NCBI GenBank assembly: GCA_963765495.1
Contig: CAVXWP010000009.1
Coordinates: 160,001-224,000 of the forward strand
Length of the DNA: 64,000 bases
Direction: 5' to 3'
Source of the DNA: Blastocatellia bacterium
Lineage (GTDB): Bacteria > Acidobacteriota > Blastocatellia > UBA7656
Positions 7,932-14,645 of this stretch are shown here, one piece after another. Made by a program: the position numbers and the translations under genes. Numbering within the stretch: the stretch's first letter is position 1; each line of letters begins with the position of its first letter. The notes under the pieces were generated by a model. That model had not been told where the DNA came from. It did no database searches and saw only the letters and a program-made list of their open reading frames with translations.

Positions 7932-8939
7932 TTACCGGGCGGAAGACTGCCGCTCGATTTCGATGAGCGGACACGGCACCCCTTCGCTTGTGGCAAGCAA
8001 AGCCTTCCCATCCGAGCTATAACAGATGGACTCACCCTGGCGGCGCTTGCCCAAATTGATCGGAGTGAGAGGCTGTTTCCATACTTCATCAAATCCCTTC
8101 CCGTCATCGTCGGGCAATGTGATTTCGTAGCCCCCGAGATAATCGCACAAGACTACTCTCCGTCCATCAGGTGCACAATCGCCGCCTGTAAACAGGCCGC
8201 CGAGAAAGGCCGGTGCGCTGACCTCTCCGACACGAACCAGAGTGTTTGGCTTTGAGGCTGATATTGGAGCGGCAAGTTTATAGATTCCTGCCGGAGCGCC
8301 CAAAATTTTAGTGACAATATACAGGTCTCCGGTCATCGGATGAACAAGCAGCGTTTCCGCGTCGTGACTGCCATCCGGGTATCTGAGACGAATCGCCTGT
8401 GCAGGCTCGGTGTTTTGAGGTCTGCTTTTCGTGGAGGCATCGTTTTCGACGATAGCAGGCTCGGCCACACGATAGACGACTATCTCAGCGCGGCTCTTGC
8501 CGTTATCGCCGATGTCCCCGATGTAGAGATAAGGGCGGCCCGGTTCAGGGCCGGGCCCCATGGCTATGTCTTCCCAATCGCGGGCCTTCGCGCCTGTCAC
8601 TCGCCAGACCCCGCGCCGTTTGCAATTGCGGTCCAGGCCGTAAAGGAACGGGCCGTCCCCGCTGTCGTTGTGAGTCCAAAACATACCGGGGTTGAGGCGA
8701 GAAGCAACTATCCCGCTGCTCTCATTTATGGTCTTGTCTTCGAGATCGCAGAGTAAAACCGGCTCCTTATAACTGGCGACCTGATTGGCGGAACCAGCCG
8801 GCTGCGCATCGGCGCGCTCCTGATTTGAAGCAACAGGTTTTAGCGTATTCTCAGACGGCGCGCTCGGTGTTTTTCCGCACGCCGCCAGAGTGATCAGGCA
8901 AAAGATGATTGATACTTTTACTGCTTGGTAGCTCATCAT
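7932..8939 (-). CDS. Lipoprotein, beta-propeller (ESSG/HNDSG/DWED family)
   Basis: Lipobox LAAC; ESSG, WTHNDSG, DWEDIA and DIGDN motifs. Confidence 0.75.
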   Translation of the reverse strand: MMSYQAVKVSIIFCLITLAACGKTPSAPSENTLKPVASNQERADAQPAGSANQVASYKEPVLLCDLEDKTINESSGIVASRLNPGMFWTHNDSGDGPFLYGLDRNCKRRGVWRVTGAKARDWEDIAMGPGPEPGRPYLYIGDIGDNGKSRAEIVVYRVAEPAIVENDASTKSRPQNTEPAQAIRLRYPDGSHDAETLLVHPMTGDLYIVTKILGAPAGIYKLAAPISASKPNTLVRVGEVSAPAFLGGLFTGGDCAPDGRRVVLCDYLGGYEITLPDDDGKGFDEVWKQPLTPINLGKRRQGESICYSSDGKALLATSEGVPCPLIEIERQSSAR

Positions 8940-9014
8940 GAAGGAAATAATAACAGGATGTTTGAAGGTGCGCTGTCTGACTTGCGGTGAGGAGATGAAA
9001 GGTTGATATGGAGT

Positions 9015-9152
9015 GAAAAAAGCCCGGCCACAAAAGCCGGTGTTGCCCCCGTAACCCCGACCCTTGTGGCCATATTTTTTGCTTTTTCTATTTAACAGTG
9101 ACCGGCATTGCCCCCTTAACCCCGGTCACTGTGCAGCCTTTTGAGCTACGCT
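9015..9152 (-). ncRNA. Candidate sigma54-dependent small RNA with two homologous hairpins
   Basis: Hairpins at 9095-9132 and 9026-9071 share the loop GGUUA(A/C)GGGGGCAA; G-U pairs form only on the minus strand; U-tract at 9016-9021; promoter upstream. Confidence 0.65.
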
Positions 9153-9162
9153 TATAGAATAG

Positions 9163-9177
9163 GCAATGCTCGTGCCA
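9163..9177 (-). promoter_or_regulatory. sigma54 (-24/-12) promoter
   Basis: Minus strand TGGCAC-GAGCA-TTGC. Confidence 0.7.
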
Positions 9178-9303
9178 GCGGCTGCAACCCGGTTGGGTAA
9201 TTCTAAGTCGTTGAAAATACGAAATTGATCAAACCGGCCTACCCGAAAGGGTAACGGAAATTGGGATTTTGAGATGACAAAACTCGTCACCCGATAGCTG
9301 ATC

Positions 9304-9402
9304 CGTGATGCGTGAGATCAGAAATACCCCGTTAAAAGAAAACTCTATTTATTGTCACGCATCACGCATCACGCATCAACTATCACGGATCACGCATCAC
9401 GC
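9304..9402. repeat. Heptamer repeat cluster (ATCACGC)n with a short inverted arm
   Basis: CGTGATGCGTGA at 9304; about 6 imperfect ATCACGC copies at 9355-9402. Confidence 0.7.
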
Positions 9403-9410
9403 CCTAAAAT

Positions 9411-10169
9411 TTAACGCGCGCAGGTGAGCGCCCGCCCGCCGTCTATGCTTATAGTAGCGCCAGTTATCCAGCCTGCTTTTTCAGAGGCAAGAAAGTAAAT
9501 CAACTCGGCGATCTCAACGGCCTCGCCTGCGCGACCGAGCGGGTGTGTAGACTTGCTGTGTTCAAGAAAGGCTTGATAAGCCTGTTCATCCATCCCGCCT
9601 GAGCGATGAAGATTGCTTACGACTACCCCGGGATTGACGGCGTTTACGCGAACCCCTTTCGGAGCGAGTTCAAGCGCCGCACATCGCGTCAACTGATCGA
9701 GACCCGCTTTGCTGACGCAGTAAGCCAGCACTCCCGGAAAGGATCGCAACCCCGTAACGCTCGACACATTTACTATATTACCCTGTGAGCGCTCAAGCGC
9801 AGGCGCAGCCAGTTTCATCAGGTGAAATATCGACCGCAGATTGATATTCATCATCTCATCCCACAGCGCAAGCGACGTAGCTTCAAGACCCCCGCTCTTG
9901 AGAATGCCCGCGCTGTTTATAAGCACATCCAATCCGCCGAGCGTCTCGACCGACTGATTCAAAGCCTCCCGGGTCTGTTGTTCATCAGAAAGATCAGCAG
10001 CCACAACAACGGCATTGCCCTCGCCTGACGACTGCGCGGCAACTTCCGAAAGCGCGCTTTCTCGACGACCGAGGAGAGCTACCTGCGCCCCTGCCTGAAT
10101 GAAGAGTTGAGCCGAGGCGCGCCCTATCCCGCTAGACGCGCCTGTGATAATCACTTTTTTATCTTTCAT
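9411..10169 (-). CDS. Short-chain dehydrogenase/reductase
   Basis: TGASSGIG, NSAG, YCVSK and VNAVNPG motifs. Confidence 0.93.
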   Translation of the reverse strand: MKDKKVIITGASSGIGRASAQLFIQAGAQVALLGRRESALSEVAAQSSGEGNAVVVAADLSDEQQTREALNQSVETLGGLDVLINSAGILKSGGLEATSLALWDEMMNINLRSIFHLMKLAAPALERSQGNIVNVSSVTGLRSFPGVLAYCVSKAGLDQLTRCAALELAPKGVRVNAVNPGVVVSNLHRSGGMDEQAYQAFLEHSKSTHPLGRAGEAVEIAELIYFLASEKAGWITGATISIDGGRALTCAR

Positions 10170-10396: not shown

Positions 10397-12049
10397 ATGA
10401 ATTTCATTGAAATGGAATCGGCACAGAAACTCCGGGGCGGCTACTACACCCCGCCAGACCTTGCTGCTTTCATGGTCCGCTGGGTAAAAGAGATCAGCCC
10501 TGACCGCATCCTGGAACCGAGTTGCGGCGATGGTGTGTTTTTCCAGGCGCTCGCGCAGGTAAAAGGCTTTCAGTCGTCAGCCATAATTGGATTCGAGCTT
10601 AACAAAGAGGAAGCCGAAAAGGCTGACGCTCGTGCACGCGATCTTGGTTTGGAAACCTTGCAAATTCACTCCACCGATTTCCTTGCCTGGGCAATCAACC
10701 ATTTGAATGACCGCGAGACCCGATTTGATGCCGTTATCGGGAATCCTCCGTTTATACGCTATCAATACCTCCTCGAGCCTTTCCAAAAGCGATCAGAAAT
10801 TATCTTTAGGCAACTCGGGCTGTCATTCACAAAGCATACCAATGCGTGGGTACCTTTTATTCTTGCTTCAATGGCGCATTTACGACCGGGCGGCAGGCTG
10901 GCGATGGTTGTTCCTTCCGAAATTATCCACGTCACACACGCGCAATCCCTGCGCTCCTATCTTGGCCGCGAATGTCGCCGCGTTGTCATCATTGACCCGG
11001 AAGAGATATGGTTTAGTAAGACGCTACAGGGCGCGGTTATTTTGCTTGCGGAAAAAAGGCAAAGCAAGACCGATATAGCCGGGGGCCTCGGAATCTATCC
11101 GGTAAAAGGGCGCGAATTTCTTCGGCTCGATCCTTCGTCAGTTTTCAACGCCCCCCAGACAATCAACGGTGATACCGTACAGGGGAAGTGGACCCGCGCT
11201 TTACTTGATAAAGAGACTCGCTCACTATTTGAAGAACTCGCAGATCGTGATGATGTCCATCTGTTCAAGGATATTGCCAATGTGGACGTAGGAATCGTCA
11301 CAGGCGCGAATAAGTTTTTTCTTGTCCCCGATGAGATCGTGCAGAGCTATAATCTCGACCGGTGGGCACATCCCATGTTTGGGCGCAGCGAACACTGCCC
11401 CGGCATCATCTATGATGAAAAACAGCACGCAACGAATGTGACCAGAGGCATTCCTACAAATTTCCTGTGGTTTCGACAAATTGATGGAGAATTAAACAGC
11501 AAGGCGAGGGCTTATATAAAATCAGGCGAAGAGCAGAAACTTCACACCCGTTACAAATGCCGTGTCCGGTCACCCTGGTACACGGTACCCTCGGTCTACG
11601 CAACCGAGATAGGCATGCTAAAGCGTTCGCACGACACGCCGCGTCTGATCCTTAATCGTATAGGTGCCTATACGACAGATACAGCCTATCGCATCCGCGC
11701 ACAAAAGATCGTGGCCGAGAAACTTGTAGGCTGCTTTATAAACCCGCTCACAGCATTGAGCGCGGAATTGGAGGGACGGCATTACGGAGGAGGCGTACTC
11801 GAATTGATTCCCTCTGAGATTGAGCGGCTAATTGTTCCCCTGCCTGTGAAGGTAAGCGTAAATCTGAACGAACTGGATAAAGCCATTCGAAACATATCAA
11901 TGGAAAACGTGCTGATTGTTCAAAGTAAAATCGTGCTGAGCGGATTGGGACTCTCCCCCTCGCAGCAGGAGTGTATTTTCGAAGGATGGCGCAAGCTGCG
12001 GGATCGCAGACATCGAACATCAGGTGAGGCTTCTACAGAGGAGGGCTAA
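10397..12049 (+). CDS. N6-adenine DNA methyltransferase (gamma class), no adjacent endonuclease
   Basis: GGYYTP, LEPSCGDG (SAM binding), GNPPF (catalytic), C-terminal TRD-like region. Confidence 0.85.
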   Translation: MNFIEMESAQKLRGGYYTPPDLAAFMVRWVKEISPDRILEPSCGDGVFFQALAQVKGFQSSAIIGFELNKEEAEKADARARDLGLETLQIHSTDFLAWAINHLNDRETRFDAVIGNPPFIRYQYLLEPFQKRSEIIFRQLGLSFTKHTNAWVPFILASMAHLRPGGRLAMVVPSEIIHVTHAQSLRSYLGRECRRVVIIDPEEIWFSKTLQGAVILLAEKRQSKTDIAGGLGIYPVKGREFLRLDPSSVFNAPQTINGDTVQGKWTRALLDKETRSLFEELADRDDVHLFKDIANVDVGIVTGANKFFLVPDEIVQSYNLDRWAHPMFGRSEHCPGIIYDEKQHATNVTRGIPTNFLWFRQIDGELNSKARAYIKSGEEQKLHTRYKCRVRSPWYTVPSVYATEIGMLKRSHDTPRLILNRIGAYTTDTAYRIRAQKIVAEKLVGCFINPLTALSAELEGRHYGGGVLELIPSEIERLIVPLPVKVSVNLNELDKAIRNISMENVLIVQSKIVLSGLGLSPSQQECIFEGWRKLRDRRHRTSGEASTEEG

Positions 12050-12213
12050 TCAATTTCTATTACAAATCGCATTGGATATATTTTGTCTCAGTAAAGTGTC
12101 GATGTCCGACCGATGTGATATTCGCGGCCTGTTTCTCTTACCTTATTTTGGAAATGCCTGTAGGTTCATTTGTACCAATCTTATAGGTTTCGAATTAGAT
12201 GTAAAGAAGAAAC

Positions 12214-12263
12214 AAGTACCCGCGGCAGGAATCGAACCTGCGACCTTTCGCTCCGGAGGCGAA
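12214..12263 (-). repeat. att site (duplicated 3' part of tRNA-Arg)
   Basis: AAGTACCCGCGG...CTCCGGAGGCGAA identical to 33043-33092; lacks the D-arm and 5' acceptor strand. Confidence 0.92.
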
Positions 12264-12410
12264 TCGGCCAGCCCTCCCGCCGCGCTGCTTTAACCGCCTA
12301 TTTGCTCACATCTAGTTACATCTATTGATCTTAGTTACTCGCCGCAGCTACGGTATCGATGCTCGATGTGATGATGAAATAACACCTATTTCCGTCAATT
12401 CTCATCTATC

Positions 12411-12432
12411 CCGGTCACATAGCGGTCACAAA
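12411..12432 (+). promoter_or_regulatory. Putative integrase arm-type binding sites
   Basis: CCGGTCACATAGCGGTCACAAA; matches 32975-32996 at 20 of 22 positions. Confidence 0.6.
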
Positions 12433-12433
12433 A

Positions 12434-13336
12434 TTATTCGCCGCCTCCTACTTCCTCTGCCCTCAGATCGCGCAACAATCGTTCAAACGCTGCCCTGTAT
12501 AAAGTGTAATCCTGCCAGTTACGGAAGTTTCCTATATGGCGCGCTCTTCGTAGCTCTGCCGCCCATGGTTTTTGGCTTTCCATTATCGCTTCATCCAACC
12601 GGATCGGGAATAGCACGGTCTGATTTCTTGTATCTTCCCTCTCCAGAGCGGCATTGACTTCTCTTTCAACCCAACGACTTGAGATTGAATTCTCAGAAAC
12701 AACGATCATAACTTTGTCATATATTCGAATAGTCTCTTCTATGCGGTCTCGGAACCTGTCTCCTATCTTCAAATCTTCGGGGGCATACCAGCAGCGCACT
12801 CCTTTACTTTGCAGATCGGCGTAAAGACGCTCTGCAAATGTTTGATCCTTGCTTGAGTAACTGATGAAACAGGAATAATAATCAAAAGCCTTTCCCGTCA
12901 AAGAAGCCAGGTACGTTATAAGATTTTCAGGCACACCACATCCTCGAAGAAACTCCTCAGATATGTTGCCACCTGATTTGTACAACGTATCCACGCCTAT
13001 CGAAGAAGGGCCAAAGTGTGTAATACTGCTGAGCCCTTTAACCTCACTGAGATCAATATTCGTCAAATTTGTATTACCAATCCAGGTGTGGCTGAGGTTC
13101 GCGCCTTTGAGAAACGCGCCTGTGAGGTTCGCACCTCTGAGGTTCACGCCTGTGAGGTTTGCGCCTCTGAGGTTCGCGCCTGCGAGGTCCGCGTCGAATA
13201 GATACGCCCCTGTGAGGTCTGCGCCTGTGAGGTTCGCGTCACGGAGGTTTGGTCTCTGATCAGAATTTCTGTTCCTCCAATCGCCCCATGCCCTTACACC
13301 TTGCCTGAGAATTTTCAGATGTTCCTCATTTGCCAT
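12434..13336 (-). CDS. Pentapeptide-repeat + TIR domain protein (copy 1)
   Basis: A(N/D)LxG pentapeptides; CFISYS...WYAPED...SRWVEREV TIR motifs. Confidence 0.9.
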   Translation of the reverse strand: MANEEHLKILRQGVRAWGDWRNRNSDQRPNLRDANLTGADLTGAYLFDADLAGANLRGANLTGVNLRGANLTGAFLKGANLSHTWIGNTNLTNIDLSEVKGLSSITHFGPSSIGVDTLYKSGGNISEEFLRGCGVPENLITYLASLTGKAFDYYSCFISYSSKDQTFAERLYADLQSKGVRCWYAPEDLKIGDRFRDRIEETIRIYDKVMIVVSENSISSRWVEREVNAALEREDTRNQTVLFPIRLDEAIMESQKPWAAELRRARHIGNFRNWQDYTLYRAAFERLLRDLRAEEVGGGE

Positions 13337-13356
13337 ATTAACATCTCCACTGACCC

Positions 13357-13455
13357 CTATGGCTTCTTACACACGCCGCACATTCCGCCGCCTTCATTAT
13401 ACTGCTTGAAGCACTTGCGATTCTTTCAAGCTTGGCATGTGGTTGATCCAGTAAA
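13357..13455 (-). pseudogene. Decayed copy of the Cys-rich peptide gene
   Basis: FTGSTTCQA*KNRKCFKQYNEGGGMCGVCKKP* aligns with the C-terminal half of 14666-14866; internal stop and lost cysteines. Confidence 0.8.
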
Positions 13456-13487
13456 TCATTGACCGTGTTACAATCTCCAGCCACAAA

Positions 13488-14645
13488 CTATTTGGCACTC
13501 TTTTCTTCCTCTGCCTTGAGATCGCGCAGCAGCCGCGCAAATCCCTGCTCGAAGTTGTCGTGATTCTTCCAGTCTGAAAAATCAGGTATGAAGTATTCTC
13601 TAACTTCTGCAGCCAGGTCTTTACCAGTGTCTGCATCGAAGCATTGCCATTCTCTGATTCGCTCGAAATCAACTAGGCGTATTGGAAAGAGCTTCCTTCT
13701 CTTCTCTCTTATCTCAACTCTCCTAGCTTTGCGAATCTCAGTCATTACCCATTCGCTCTTCATGCTATCGTCTGAAAGCACGAGCAATAATCTATCGTGA
13801 AGTTGAATGGCTCGCTCGATTTGATCATAGATTTTATCCCCACCCTTCATATCTTCAGGAGCAAACCAGACGCGCAAGTGCTCATCTCGCATACGAGAAT
13901 GGAGCCGCCTTGCAATCTCCTCATCCTTATGACTATAGCTAATAAAGCAGGAATAGAACTGGATCGCTTGCCGCGCTCCAATCAAGGATGGCAGAAAGGT
14001 TATGAATTCATCCGGTACACCACATCCACGAAGGAACTCTTCTGGTATTTTCCCACCTGATTGGTACAGTGTATCCAAATCAATCGAGGAAGGAAGAATG
14101 TGCTCCAAACTCTCAAGGCCTTTAACCTTGCTGAGATCAAGGGCTGTGAAATGTGTATAGCCGATAATTGCATTGCTGAGGTCTGCACCGCTGAGATCCG
14201 CACGGCTGAGGTCCACGCCAGCAAGGTCCGCACCTCTGAGTTTCGCGCGGCTAAGGTTCGTGTCGCTGAGATTCGCGCTAGCGAGATTCGCGTTGTCGAA
14301 GTCAGCCCCGCTGAGGTCCGCGCTGCTGAAATCCGCGCCCACCAGGACCGCACCGATGAGTTTTGCCTCTCTGAGGTCCGCCCCGCTAAGGTTTGCGTTG
14401 CCTATCTCCGAACCATAAAGATTTGAGGCTCTGAGATCTGCACGGCTGAGGTTCGCGCCGCTGAGGTTCGCGCTATAGAGGTTTGCACCGTAGAGGATTG
14501 TTTTGTTGAGATTTGCGCCAATGAGTTCCAAACCACTGAGATCCGCCCCGCTGAGGTCAGGGATTTCATTAGAAATCCTGATTCTCCACTTATTCCATGC
14601 TTCTACCCCTTGCCAAAGAATCTTCAGATGCTCCTCAATTGCCAT
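13488..14645 (-). CDS. Pentapeptide-repeat + TIR domain protein (copy 2, longer repeat region)
   Basis: Long ADLSG/ANLSG array; CFISYS...WFAPED...SEWVMTEI TIR motifs. Confidence 0.9.
   Translation of the reverse strand: MAIEEHLKILWQGVEAWNKWRIRISNEIPDLSGADLSGLELIGANLNKTILYGANLYSANLSGANLSRADLRASNLYGSEIGNANLSGADLREAKLIGAVLVGADFSSADLSGADFDNANLASANLSDTNLSRAKLRGADLAGVDLSRADLSGADLSNAIIGYTHFTALDLSKVKGLESLEHILPSSIDLDTLYQSGGKIPEEFLRGCGVPDEFITFLPSLIGARQAIQFYSCFISYSHKDEEIARRLHSRMRDEHLRVWFAPEDMKGGDKIYDQIERAIQLHDRLLLVLSDDSMKSEWVMTEIRKARRVEIREKRRKLFPIRLVDFERIREWQCFDADTGKDLAAEVREYFIPDFSDWKNHDNFEQGFARLLRDLKAEEEKSAK

Follow-up and report, generated by a model that had tools for sequence, protein, structure and literature searches.

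A predicted, lineage-restricted family of sigma54 small RNAs with repeated GGGGG-loop hairpins in Blastocatellia

The stretch of Blastocatellia DNA analysed here (the window, 64,000 nt) carries on its minus strand a predicted small RNA that has five paralogues elsewhere in the genome. We are almost certain that the family to which these RNAs belong is real, that it is uncatalogued and restricted to one lineage, and that its members are sigma54 small RNAs. The best explanation of the locus as a whole, which we advance tentatively, is a ~136-nt trans-acting sRNA, one of six paralogues, that would act as a decoy for an RNA-binding protein. Few descriptions exist of regulatory RNAs from the Acidobacteriota, a group abundant in soil.

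The element sits between an SDR gene, which ends at 9411, and a 335-aa gene with no Pfam match, which starts at 8939; this downstream gene (7932-8939) is on the same strand and begins 76 nt past the U-tract. Read from the sequence, a sigma54 -24/-12 promoter, TGGCAC-N5-TTGC, is present on the minus strand at 9163-9177, where the initial annotation had put it, with a predicted +1 at 9151. The predicted RNA spans 9016-9151 on the same strand (~136 nt). Its 5' end (9133-9151) holds the conserved word CGUAGCU and a small hairpin, P1 (9133-9149). Next comes module hairpin 1 (9095-9132), in which an 11-bp stem, a G·G mismatch and 3 bp carry the loop AAGGGGGC at 9110-9117. An A-rich linker (9072-9094) leads to module hairpin 2 (9026-9071), with a 15-bp stem, a G·A mismatch, 3 bp and the loop ACGGGGGC at 9045-9052. 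The 3' tail (9016-9025) contains a U-tract (9016-9021) that is terminator-like in this copy. The linker is a decayed version of the family linker and is missing its word GAAGCGACAG, and in the folding the U-tract is able to pair alternatively with the linker. The two hairpins, the A-rich linker and the U-tract had all been described before and were found in their places, while P1, the six-copy family and the activator boxes shared with a pilin promoter were absent from the initial annotation. Directly past the SDR stop codon lies another minus-strand hairpin, with heptamer arms of GCGTGAT units (~9287-9402, -47.5 kcal/mol), whose 3' arm touches activator box 1 (see below).

A structured RNA of ~140 nt had been proposed, and the computed fold agrees with this. 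The span 9016-9151 folds at -63.9 kcal/mol against -38.5 ± 3.2 in 200 dinucleotide shuffles (z = -7.85), none of which (0/200) was as stable, and the minus strand of the same span folds better than the plus strand (-64.3 versus -51.7). The window contains two occurrences of a 22-nt loop word, which none of 100 shuffles contains. The promoter word at one mismatch has 6 matches in the window versus 4.6 expected; by itself it is weak evidence, and it gains weight because it is conserved in homologues. Another perfect TGGCAC-N5-TTGC, at 1676-1690 on the minus strand, precedes a gene that has an SD-like word; its activator-box score is not one of the top ones. Elsewhere in the window (10397-14645) an Eco57I-type methyltransferase gene stands next to two genes that, from their translations only, look like pentapeptide-repeat plus TIR-like proteins.

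The element is unannotated, as had been supposed. Rfam 15 found only tRNA over the whole window and five weak, unrelated matches on 8600-9500, giving no family at the locus, and 15 homologous loci gave 0 matches at E <= 0.5. Membership in the Acido-Lenti-1 class (RF01687), which the initial annotation had considered, did not hold, since the model finds nothing here either at its gathering cut-off (37 bits) or at E <= 10; four matches above the cut-off lie elsewhere in this genome. As described in the portion of PMC2864571 available to us, Acido-Lenti-1 resembles the present RNAs in being acidobacterial, non-coding, two-hairpin and present in several copies, but its seed rows are 46 nt long, with short stems and unrelated loops. 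No description of a twin-loop RNA family was found in the literature searched, and a term search of the main text of a 2026 preprint on prokaryotic non-coding space (bioRxiv 10.64898/2026.10.21.760802) turned up only Acido-Lenti-1.

Six paralogous loci are present in this genome, one being 9016-9151. A sequence search gave three further two-hairpin copies, each following TGGCAC-N5-TTGC; the last two, a copy with a single hairpin (C8) and one of ~300 nt (C15), came from a covariance model. Exactly 11 modules, all inside the six loci and all behind a sigma54-like site, were returned both when the whole genome was scanned for hairpins and when it was searched with a model of the module alone. Relatives carry three types of copy: type I has two modules, type II one module, and type III is longer, having both an additional 5' domain and a true terminator. 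This copy falls among B/C-type copies, nearest the B-type (78% identity), in a tree of 93 rows that has few columns and many unresolved forks. Paralogues retain their gene neighbourhood across the family, while the neighbours of this copy are its own and are not common to two or more type I loci.

Several features of the other copies are recorded here as separate observations. A-type RNA genes are tandemly duplicated with their promoters, ~500 nt apart, at six loci (L083, L151, L201, L372, L420, L424). Between C-type RNAs and a sigma70-like gene lies a conserved 80-aa ORF (C7:735240-735482; L042:6241-6480), for which we found no Pfam or PHROG match and only weak Atlas leads. The type III paralogue (C15:33132-33430; L056, L205) has a near-invariant 5' domain in which a stretch rich in C/U resembles an anti-SD, and a third hairpin built likewise of a mismatch plus 3 bp but bearing a GAGCAG loop; long-range pairing of its 5' domain with the linker showed no two-sided changes and is unsupported. 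In 5/14 type III loci glnA lies downstream within the fetched flank.

In the module, as read from the alignments, a long stem is followed by a G·R mismatch (G·G or G·A), then by 3 bp, and is closed by the loop A-(C/A/U)-GGGGG-C; this definition rests on covariation and on a held-out metagenome test. Among 27 aligned RNAs, 29/36 pairs show two-sided change and 96.9% of cells are paired, compared with 32-53% in slid controls. Two-sided change is seen in 14/14 pairs of hairpin 1 and in 14/17 pairs of hairpin 2, where 99.3% of cells are paired; P1 is 94.7% paired with little two-sided change. In a set of 83 modules, chosen for diversity from 185 that had been selected for pairing, all 15/15 pairs change on both sides. 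The metagenome set (80 distinct matches, that is 80 of 120 loci) is free of this selection bias because its members were picked only by promoter and two loops. In these 80 matches each of the three pairs next to the loop is formed in 99-100%; no pair stands at the fourth position in 80/80 first hairpins (G·G in 74) and 67/80 second hairpins, and 68/80 pass a strict two-module rule. Counted on the promoter strand, the stem cells comprise 1734 Watson-Crick, 236 G-U, 24 A-C and 86 other, and the excess of G-U over A-C is the asymmetry expected of an RNA on that strand.

The view that the RNA shows the same site twice is thus borne out: the loops are kept and the stems covary strongly in homologues. 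What had been described as near-identical 16-nt loops are indeed nearly identical, but each is not a single open loop: within it, three covarying pairs separate a 1x1 G·R mismatch from a loop of 8 nt. Across the 185 modules the loop is ACGGGGGC in 138, AAGGGGGC in 30, ATGGGGGC in 16 and AGGGGGGC in 1. Outside the hairpins, the 5' word CGUAGCU occurs in at least 68/80 of the metagenome homologues and the linker word GAAGCGACAG in 58/80. The U-tract noted earlier is present in this copy, but a run of at least 5 U after hairpin 2 occurs in only 24/78 homologues, and as far as these sequences tell it is not a family-wide terminator. A linker-to-tail helix was rejected as a family feature (duplex mean -5.8 versus -6.0 shuffled), and inspection of the alignments by eye led us to set aside G-quadruplex and small-peptide readings. 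In three loci (L028, L029, L216) the second loop is decayed or deleted and the stem still pairs, so one module may suffice.

The family is sharply confined. In the genome samples on which these figures rest, 'none found' being limited to the genomes searched, the module model was positive in 52/52 other family genomes (53/53 with our own), with 2-11 modules each, and in 0/5 sister-family genomes; the full model matched 34/34 family genomes, and gave only 2 weak matches among 116 other class genomes and 7 single weak matches among the 149 other genomes of a phylum sample of 151, all of these without promoter or without module. On these samples the RNA is a sharp lineage marker (53/53 family versus 0/5 sister family), one whose fold is very well supported and whose promoter is exceptionally complete. 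Pattern loci from the genome collections score with the model in 53/80 cases and do not in 27/80. The scoring ones are titled Blastocatellia or Acidobacteria, including 'Chloracidobacterium sp. UBA7656' and 'Ca. Onstottus arcticum' (Blastocatellia), and our guess is that the RNA-carrying family is GTDB UBA7656. Eight of the genome-collection loci are titled 'uncultured Clostridia'; these titles are probably mislabels, because the ones placed in the tree fall within Blastocatellia RNA groups and mostly have the same neighbours. A single viral pattern match proved to be a G-rich coding stretch.

In all 80 metagenome matches the first loop lies 57-62 nt past the promoter start, the pattern having allowed 55-67. 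The covariance model itself contains no promoter, and of 69 matches fetched with it, 50 remained after removal of 13 training rows and 6 without a strict module. A sigma54 word stands within 130 nt in 49/50 of these module-bearing, non-training matches, compared with 0.2% of random windows, which argues for the sigma54 control of transcription proposed in the initial annotation.

Further upstream lie the putative sites of an activator. Box 1, a palindrome of the type TGACA-N5-TGTCA and a putative PilR site, lies at 9275-9289 (minus strand); the degenerate box 2 follows 8 nt later at 9252-9266 (minus). A distal TACCC-N4-GGGTA palindrome at 9240-9254 is a possible site of a second regulator. The word at 9204-9216 (minus), conserved in family promoters, is one that we take to be IHF-like from its consensus; with up to 2 mismatches it occurs there in 106/185 family promoters versus 26/185 in a control window. 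Between it and the -24 element is a proximal TACCY-N4-RGG box (9187-9200, minus), found in 94/185 family promoters versus 2 in a control window. At about -50 this box is present in 98/155 type I promoters and, at that place, in 0/30 type II/III promoters, which marks it, on present alignments, as a type I feature. A gene for a LuxR-type regulator (C1:816546-817181) lies upstream of B-type copies in 20/91 type I loci and may encode a binder of this box.

The two palindromic boxes have the consensus TgACAaaattTGTcA and are spaced 7-9 nt. The matrix used to score them is symmetric with a variable gap, and was trained on 176 promoters of other genomes, our own being held out. It gave strong scores (19.2-31.5) at only 8 of 152 sigma54-like sites, namely the six RNA promoters, the promoter of the major type IV pilin (C9:526348) and that of a ClpB-like AAA gene (C16:323216). 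The other 144 sites score at most 2.9, the random 99th percentile being 2.3. The present promoter scores 30.8, rank 5 of 152, with boxes starting 112 nt before the promoter. This matrix was a second try, built after a fixed-gap matrix that returned the same top group, but with the present promoter 9th at 6.3 and the pilin promoters lower (13/27 at 10 or more). With the variable gap, pilin promoters exceed the 99% background line at 24/27 family loci and at 8/10 loci from other families without the RNA, and the boxes are visible in pilin promoters across the class; at 6/16 outside-family loci there is no sigma54 site ahead of the pilin. Two short ClpB-like AAA genes stand behind sigma54 sites (C16:323216 and C3:37363), with pilin-type boxes at the former.

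There is a single rpoN gene in the genome, along with about 30 genes for enhancer-binding proteins and a pilB-pilT-pilC-pilS-pilR cluster, whose sensor kinase has a weak PilS-like membrane domain and whose PilR is encoded at C1:1149978-1151405. In Geobacter, Myxococcus and Pseudomonas, according to the available parts of PMC3333781 and PMC6058289, pilin genes are under the control of response regulators acting with sigma54, and PilR is for this reason the simplest activator. Judged by the shared boxes, the RNA family probably belongs to the PilR regulon. The type of site is not unique to PilR, because an 8-nt gap turns the junction of the two boxes into TGTC-N10-GACA, the motif given for GlrR in the part of PMC4152352 that we cite. 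The boxes also differ from the PilR hallmarks quoted for Pseudomonas in the passages available, and no PilR box from Acidobacteria or Geobacter was found in the literature searched. If PilR is the activator, the RNAs would form an RNA arm of the type IV pilus regulon; none was found in the literature searched.

How might such RNAs act? We lean towards a protein decoy as the most likely action. Each hairpin would present a fixed shape-plus-loop site, with the G·R mismatch three pairs below A-M-GGGGG-C, and a specific RNA-binding protein would read mismatch and loop together. With 1-2 sites per RNA and 2-11 per genome, the RNAs could titrate that protein off its mRNAs, as RsmY/Z, CrcZ and GlmY do for their own proteins, and PilR as the likely activator would link pilus control to the RNA switch. 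Recognition by a protein fits because the geometry of mismatch and loop is fixed while the sequence of the stem is free, and a decoy fits because this fixed geometry on varying stems is combined with repetition and with a regulon made up mostly of RNAs.

The genome encodes several candidate binders: seven RRM proteins, two Hfq-like proteins, RapZ, KhpA and cold-shock proteins. CsrA was found in neither our own genome nor the family (0/18), versus 9/82 other class genomes, and an ANTAR protein was likewise found in neither (0 and 0/18), with 14 control genomes also at 0 and one class genome scoring. To judge from these gene contents, the partner is neither CsrA nor an ANTAR protein. None of the RNA-binding families tested matches the range of the RNA: RRM is present in 58/58 order genomes, the second Hfq in 5/5 sister-family genomes, and CSD and KhpA in 5/5 genomes tested, 3 of those from the sister family. 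The second Hfq gene lay with pilin genes at only 1/30 loci, and an association between the two was rejected. No copy of the module was found in the mRNA leaders of the genome, those of the RRM genes included. The RRM genes have long, family-conserved leaders with C-rich stretches (L469-L498; C4:202637, C7:665852, C10:65909), possibly another uncatalogued cis-element. Mimicry of a ribosome-binding hairpin was rejected, AHGGGGG ribosome-binding sites in stems (4/30) not being above controls.

Of the 8 predicted sigma54 targets with activator boxes, 6 are the RNAs. A more speculative extension, which we regard as possible but doubtful, is a CsrA-independent, Csr-like circuit in which the PilS/PilR system, which senses the pilus and is known for driving pilin, would devote most of its regulon to RNAs sequestering an RNA-binding regulator of an undescribed kind. 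A regulator reading a G·G mismatch plus a GGGGG loop would then couple pilus state to translation in an acidobacterial family of the soil. If the decoy reading is right, the RNA could serve directly as bait for a new regulator that binds RNA with a specificity other than GGA.

The main rival to the protein decoy, and a serious one, is base-pairing. Here the copies would be redundant sRNAs in the manner of Qrr or NrsZ, under the same activator, whose loops, CGUAGCU word or linker pair with C-rich mRNA sites with the aid of Hfq or an RRM protein. In its favour, sequence is conserved in both the 5' word and the linker, and an Hfq with a basic rim is encoded. In the available parts of the reports, NrsZ is RpoN-driven, with 1-6 repeated hairpins, a conserved loop and a proposed pairing with rhlA (PMC4253122), and in the multicopy FopS family a single-stranded seed is conserved and the RNAs bind an RRM protein (PMC11697453). 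The near-invariant C/U-rich stretch of type III also reaches top target energies of -23.6 versus -18.9 to -21.6 in four shuffles. However, loop complements near start codons are not enriched (22 versus 31 and 31 over 2813 genes, with gene starts taken from a crude caller and with the proviso that a few real targets would escape genome-wide seed counts), and the top duplex energies of loop, linker and 5' word fall inside the shuffled range. Pairing would not need a G·R mismatch fixed three pairs from the loop, and a U-tail is present in only 24/78 homologues. We consider base-pairing unlikely overall.

Pairing could also be with the ribosome, the loops mimicking a Shine-Dalgarno sequence and binding the 16S anti-SD or competing with GGGGG-type ribosome-binding hairpins, which we hold to be very improbable. 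The loops do pair with the genome's own 16S tail at -8.6 and -9.8 kcal/mol, and a sigma70-like gene beside the C7 paralogue has a module-like hairpin at its ribosome-binding site. Yet a perfect SD reaches -11.6 and the loop is never GGAGG in 185 modules, although the search word allowed it; the hairpin of the sigma70-like gene is not kept in the 11 relatives shown, and GGGGG-type sites are not enriched in stems.

The position of the element ahead of gene 7932-8939, 76 nt from U-tract to gene start on the same strand, could suggest a cis-acting leader, attenuator or tandem riboswitch for that gene, and C-type copies do precede the conserved 80-aa ORF and the sigma70-like gene, as some of type III precede glnA. 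A cis role is nevertheless most unlikely, since the genes found downstream differ between loci and many are convergent: the commonest is convergent radA (21/91 type I loci), and type II copies face a convergent gene in 10/10 cases. Type III, moreover, carries its own terminator, the neighbours of this copy are not common to two or more type I loci, and there is no Rfam riboswitch match. The hairpin repeat just upstream of the locus might suggest that the element is itself a repeat at the DNA level or a mobile hairpin (REP- or IS-end-like), placed behind promoters by chance. This is hardly credible given only 11 modules, all within six promoter loci, paralogues that keep their neighbourhood across the family, the G-U to A-C ratio of 236 to 24 on the promoter strand, and no transposase or integrase among 39 neighbours scanned.

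In outline, the RNAs are like NrsZ, CrcZ, GlmY or the Rsm RNAs, but they do not appear to belong to any of these groups. Qrr1-5 of Vibrio are multi-copy sigma54 sRNAs that make up most of the regulon of one activator, and act by single-stranded seed pairing with a terminator at the end; they have no sequence or Rfam match with the twin-loop RNAs. The guanidine-II riboswitch, also of two hairpins, has no Rfam match here, and there is no consistent downstream transporter gene. The dual-hairpin targets of ANTAR differ in that an ANTAR protein was not found in our own and 18 family genomes.

CsrB, RsmY and RsmZ are present as several RNAs per genome, carry the same loop on repeated hairpins and are the main output of one two-component system. 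The repeated loop and the several RNAs per genome are seen here as well, but the present loops lack GGA, and CsrA/RsmA was not found in our own and 18 family genomes. The decoy role of CsrB/RsmY/RsmZ is described in the portion of PMC8395346 consulted, as are CrcZ, CrcY and CrcX, redundant paralogues with decoy logic that depend on RpoN, a response regulator (CbrB) and IHF. A sigma54 promoter with putative activator boxes and an IHF-like site is found here too. CrcZ differs in being ~407 nt long with A-rich Hfq motifs (PMC8395346, same portion), where the present RNAs have a conserved G-rich hairpin loop. The longest run of ARN triplets is 6 in this copy (shuffle mean 3.4) and 2-5 in the other 26, mostly near shuffles.

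GlmY and GlmZ, in the available part of PMC4152352, combine sigma54 with IHF and GlrR, which has TGTC-N10-GACA sites >100 bp upstream, and GlmY is a decoy that acts through a stem-loop; RapZ is encoded here, in the rpoN cluster. They have one central stem-loop, in contrast to the repeated modules here, which have no Rfam match; there is no glmS among the neighbours scanned, and the RNA is restricted to one Blastocatellia family.

NrsZ of Pseudomonas, as far as the available part of PMC4253122 describes it, likewise joins an RpoN promoter and an enhancer-binding activator to repeated hairpins with an invariant 8-nt purine-rich loop, and the number of its modules varies between species; its mechanism, pairing, is proposed and not proven in that source. 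Its loop is ACAGGCAG, and it is a single locus adjoining ntrC and activated by NtrC (PMC4253122, same part). No enhancer-binding gene was found among the recurrent neighbours of the RNA loci. The twin-loop RNAs, in contrast to NrsZ, occupy several separate loci, carry a GGGGG loop with a fixed G·R mismatch, and have upstream boxes shared with the pilin promoter, a likeness that suggests a place in a PilR regulon.
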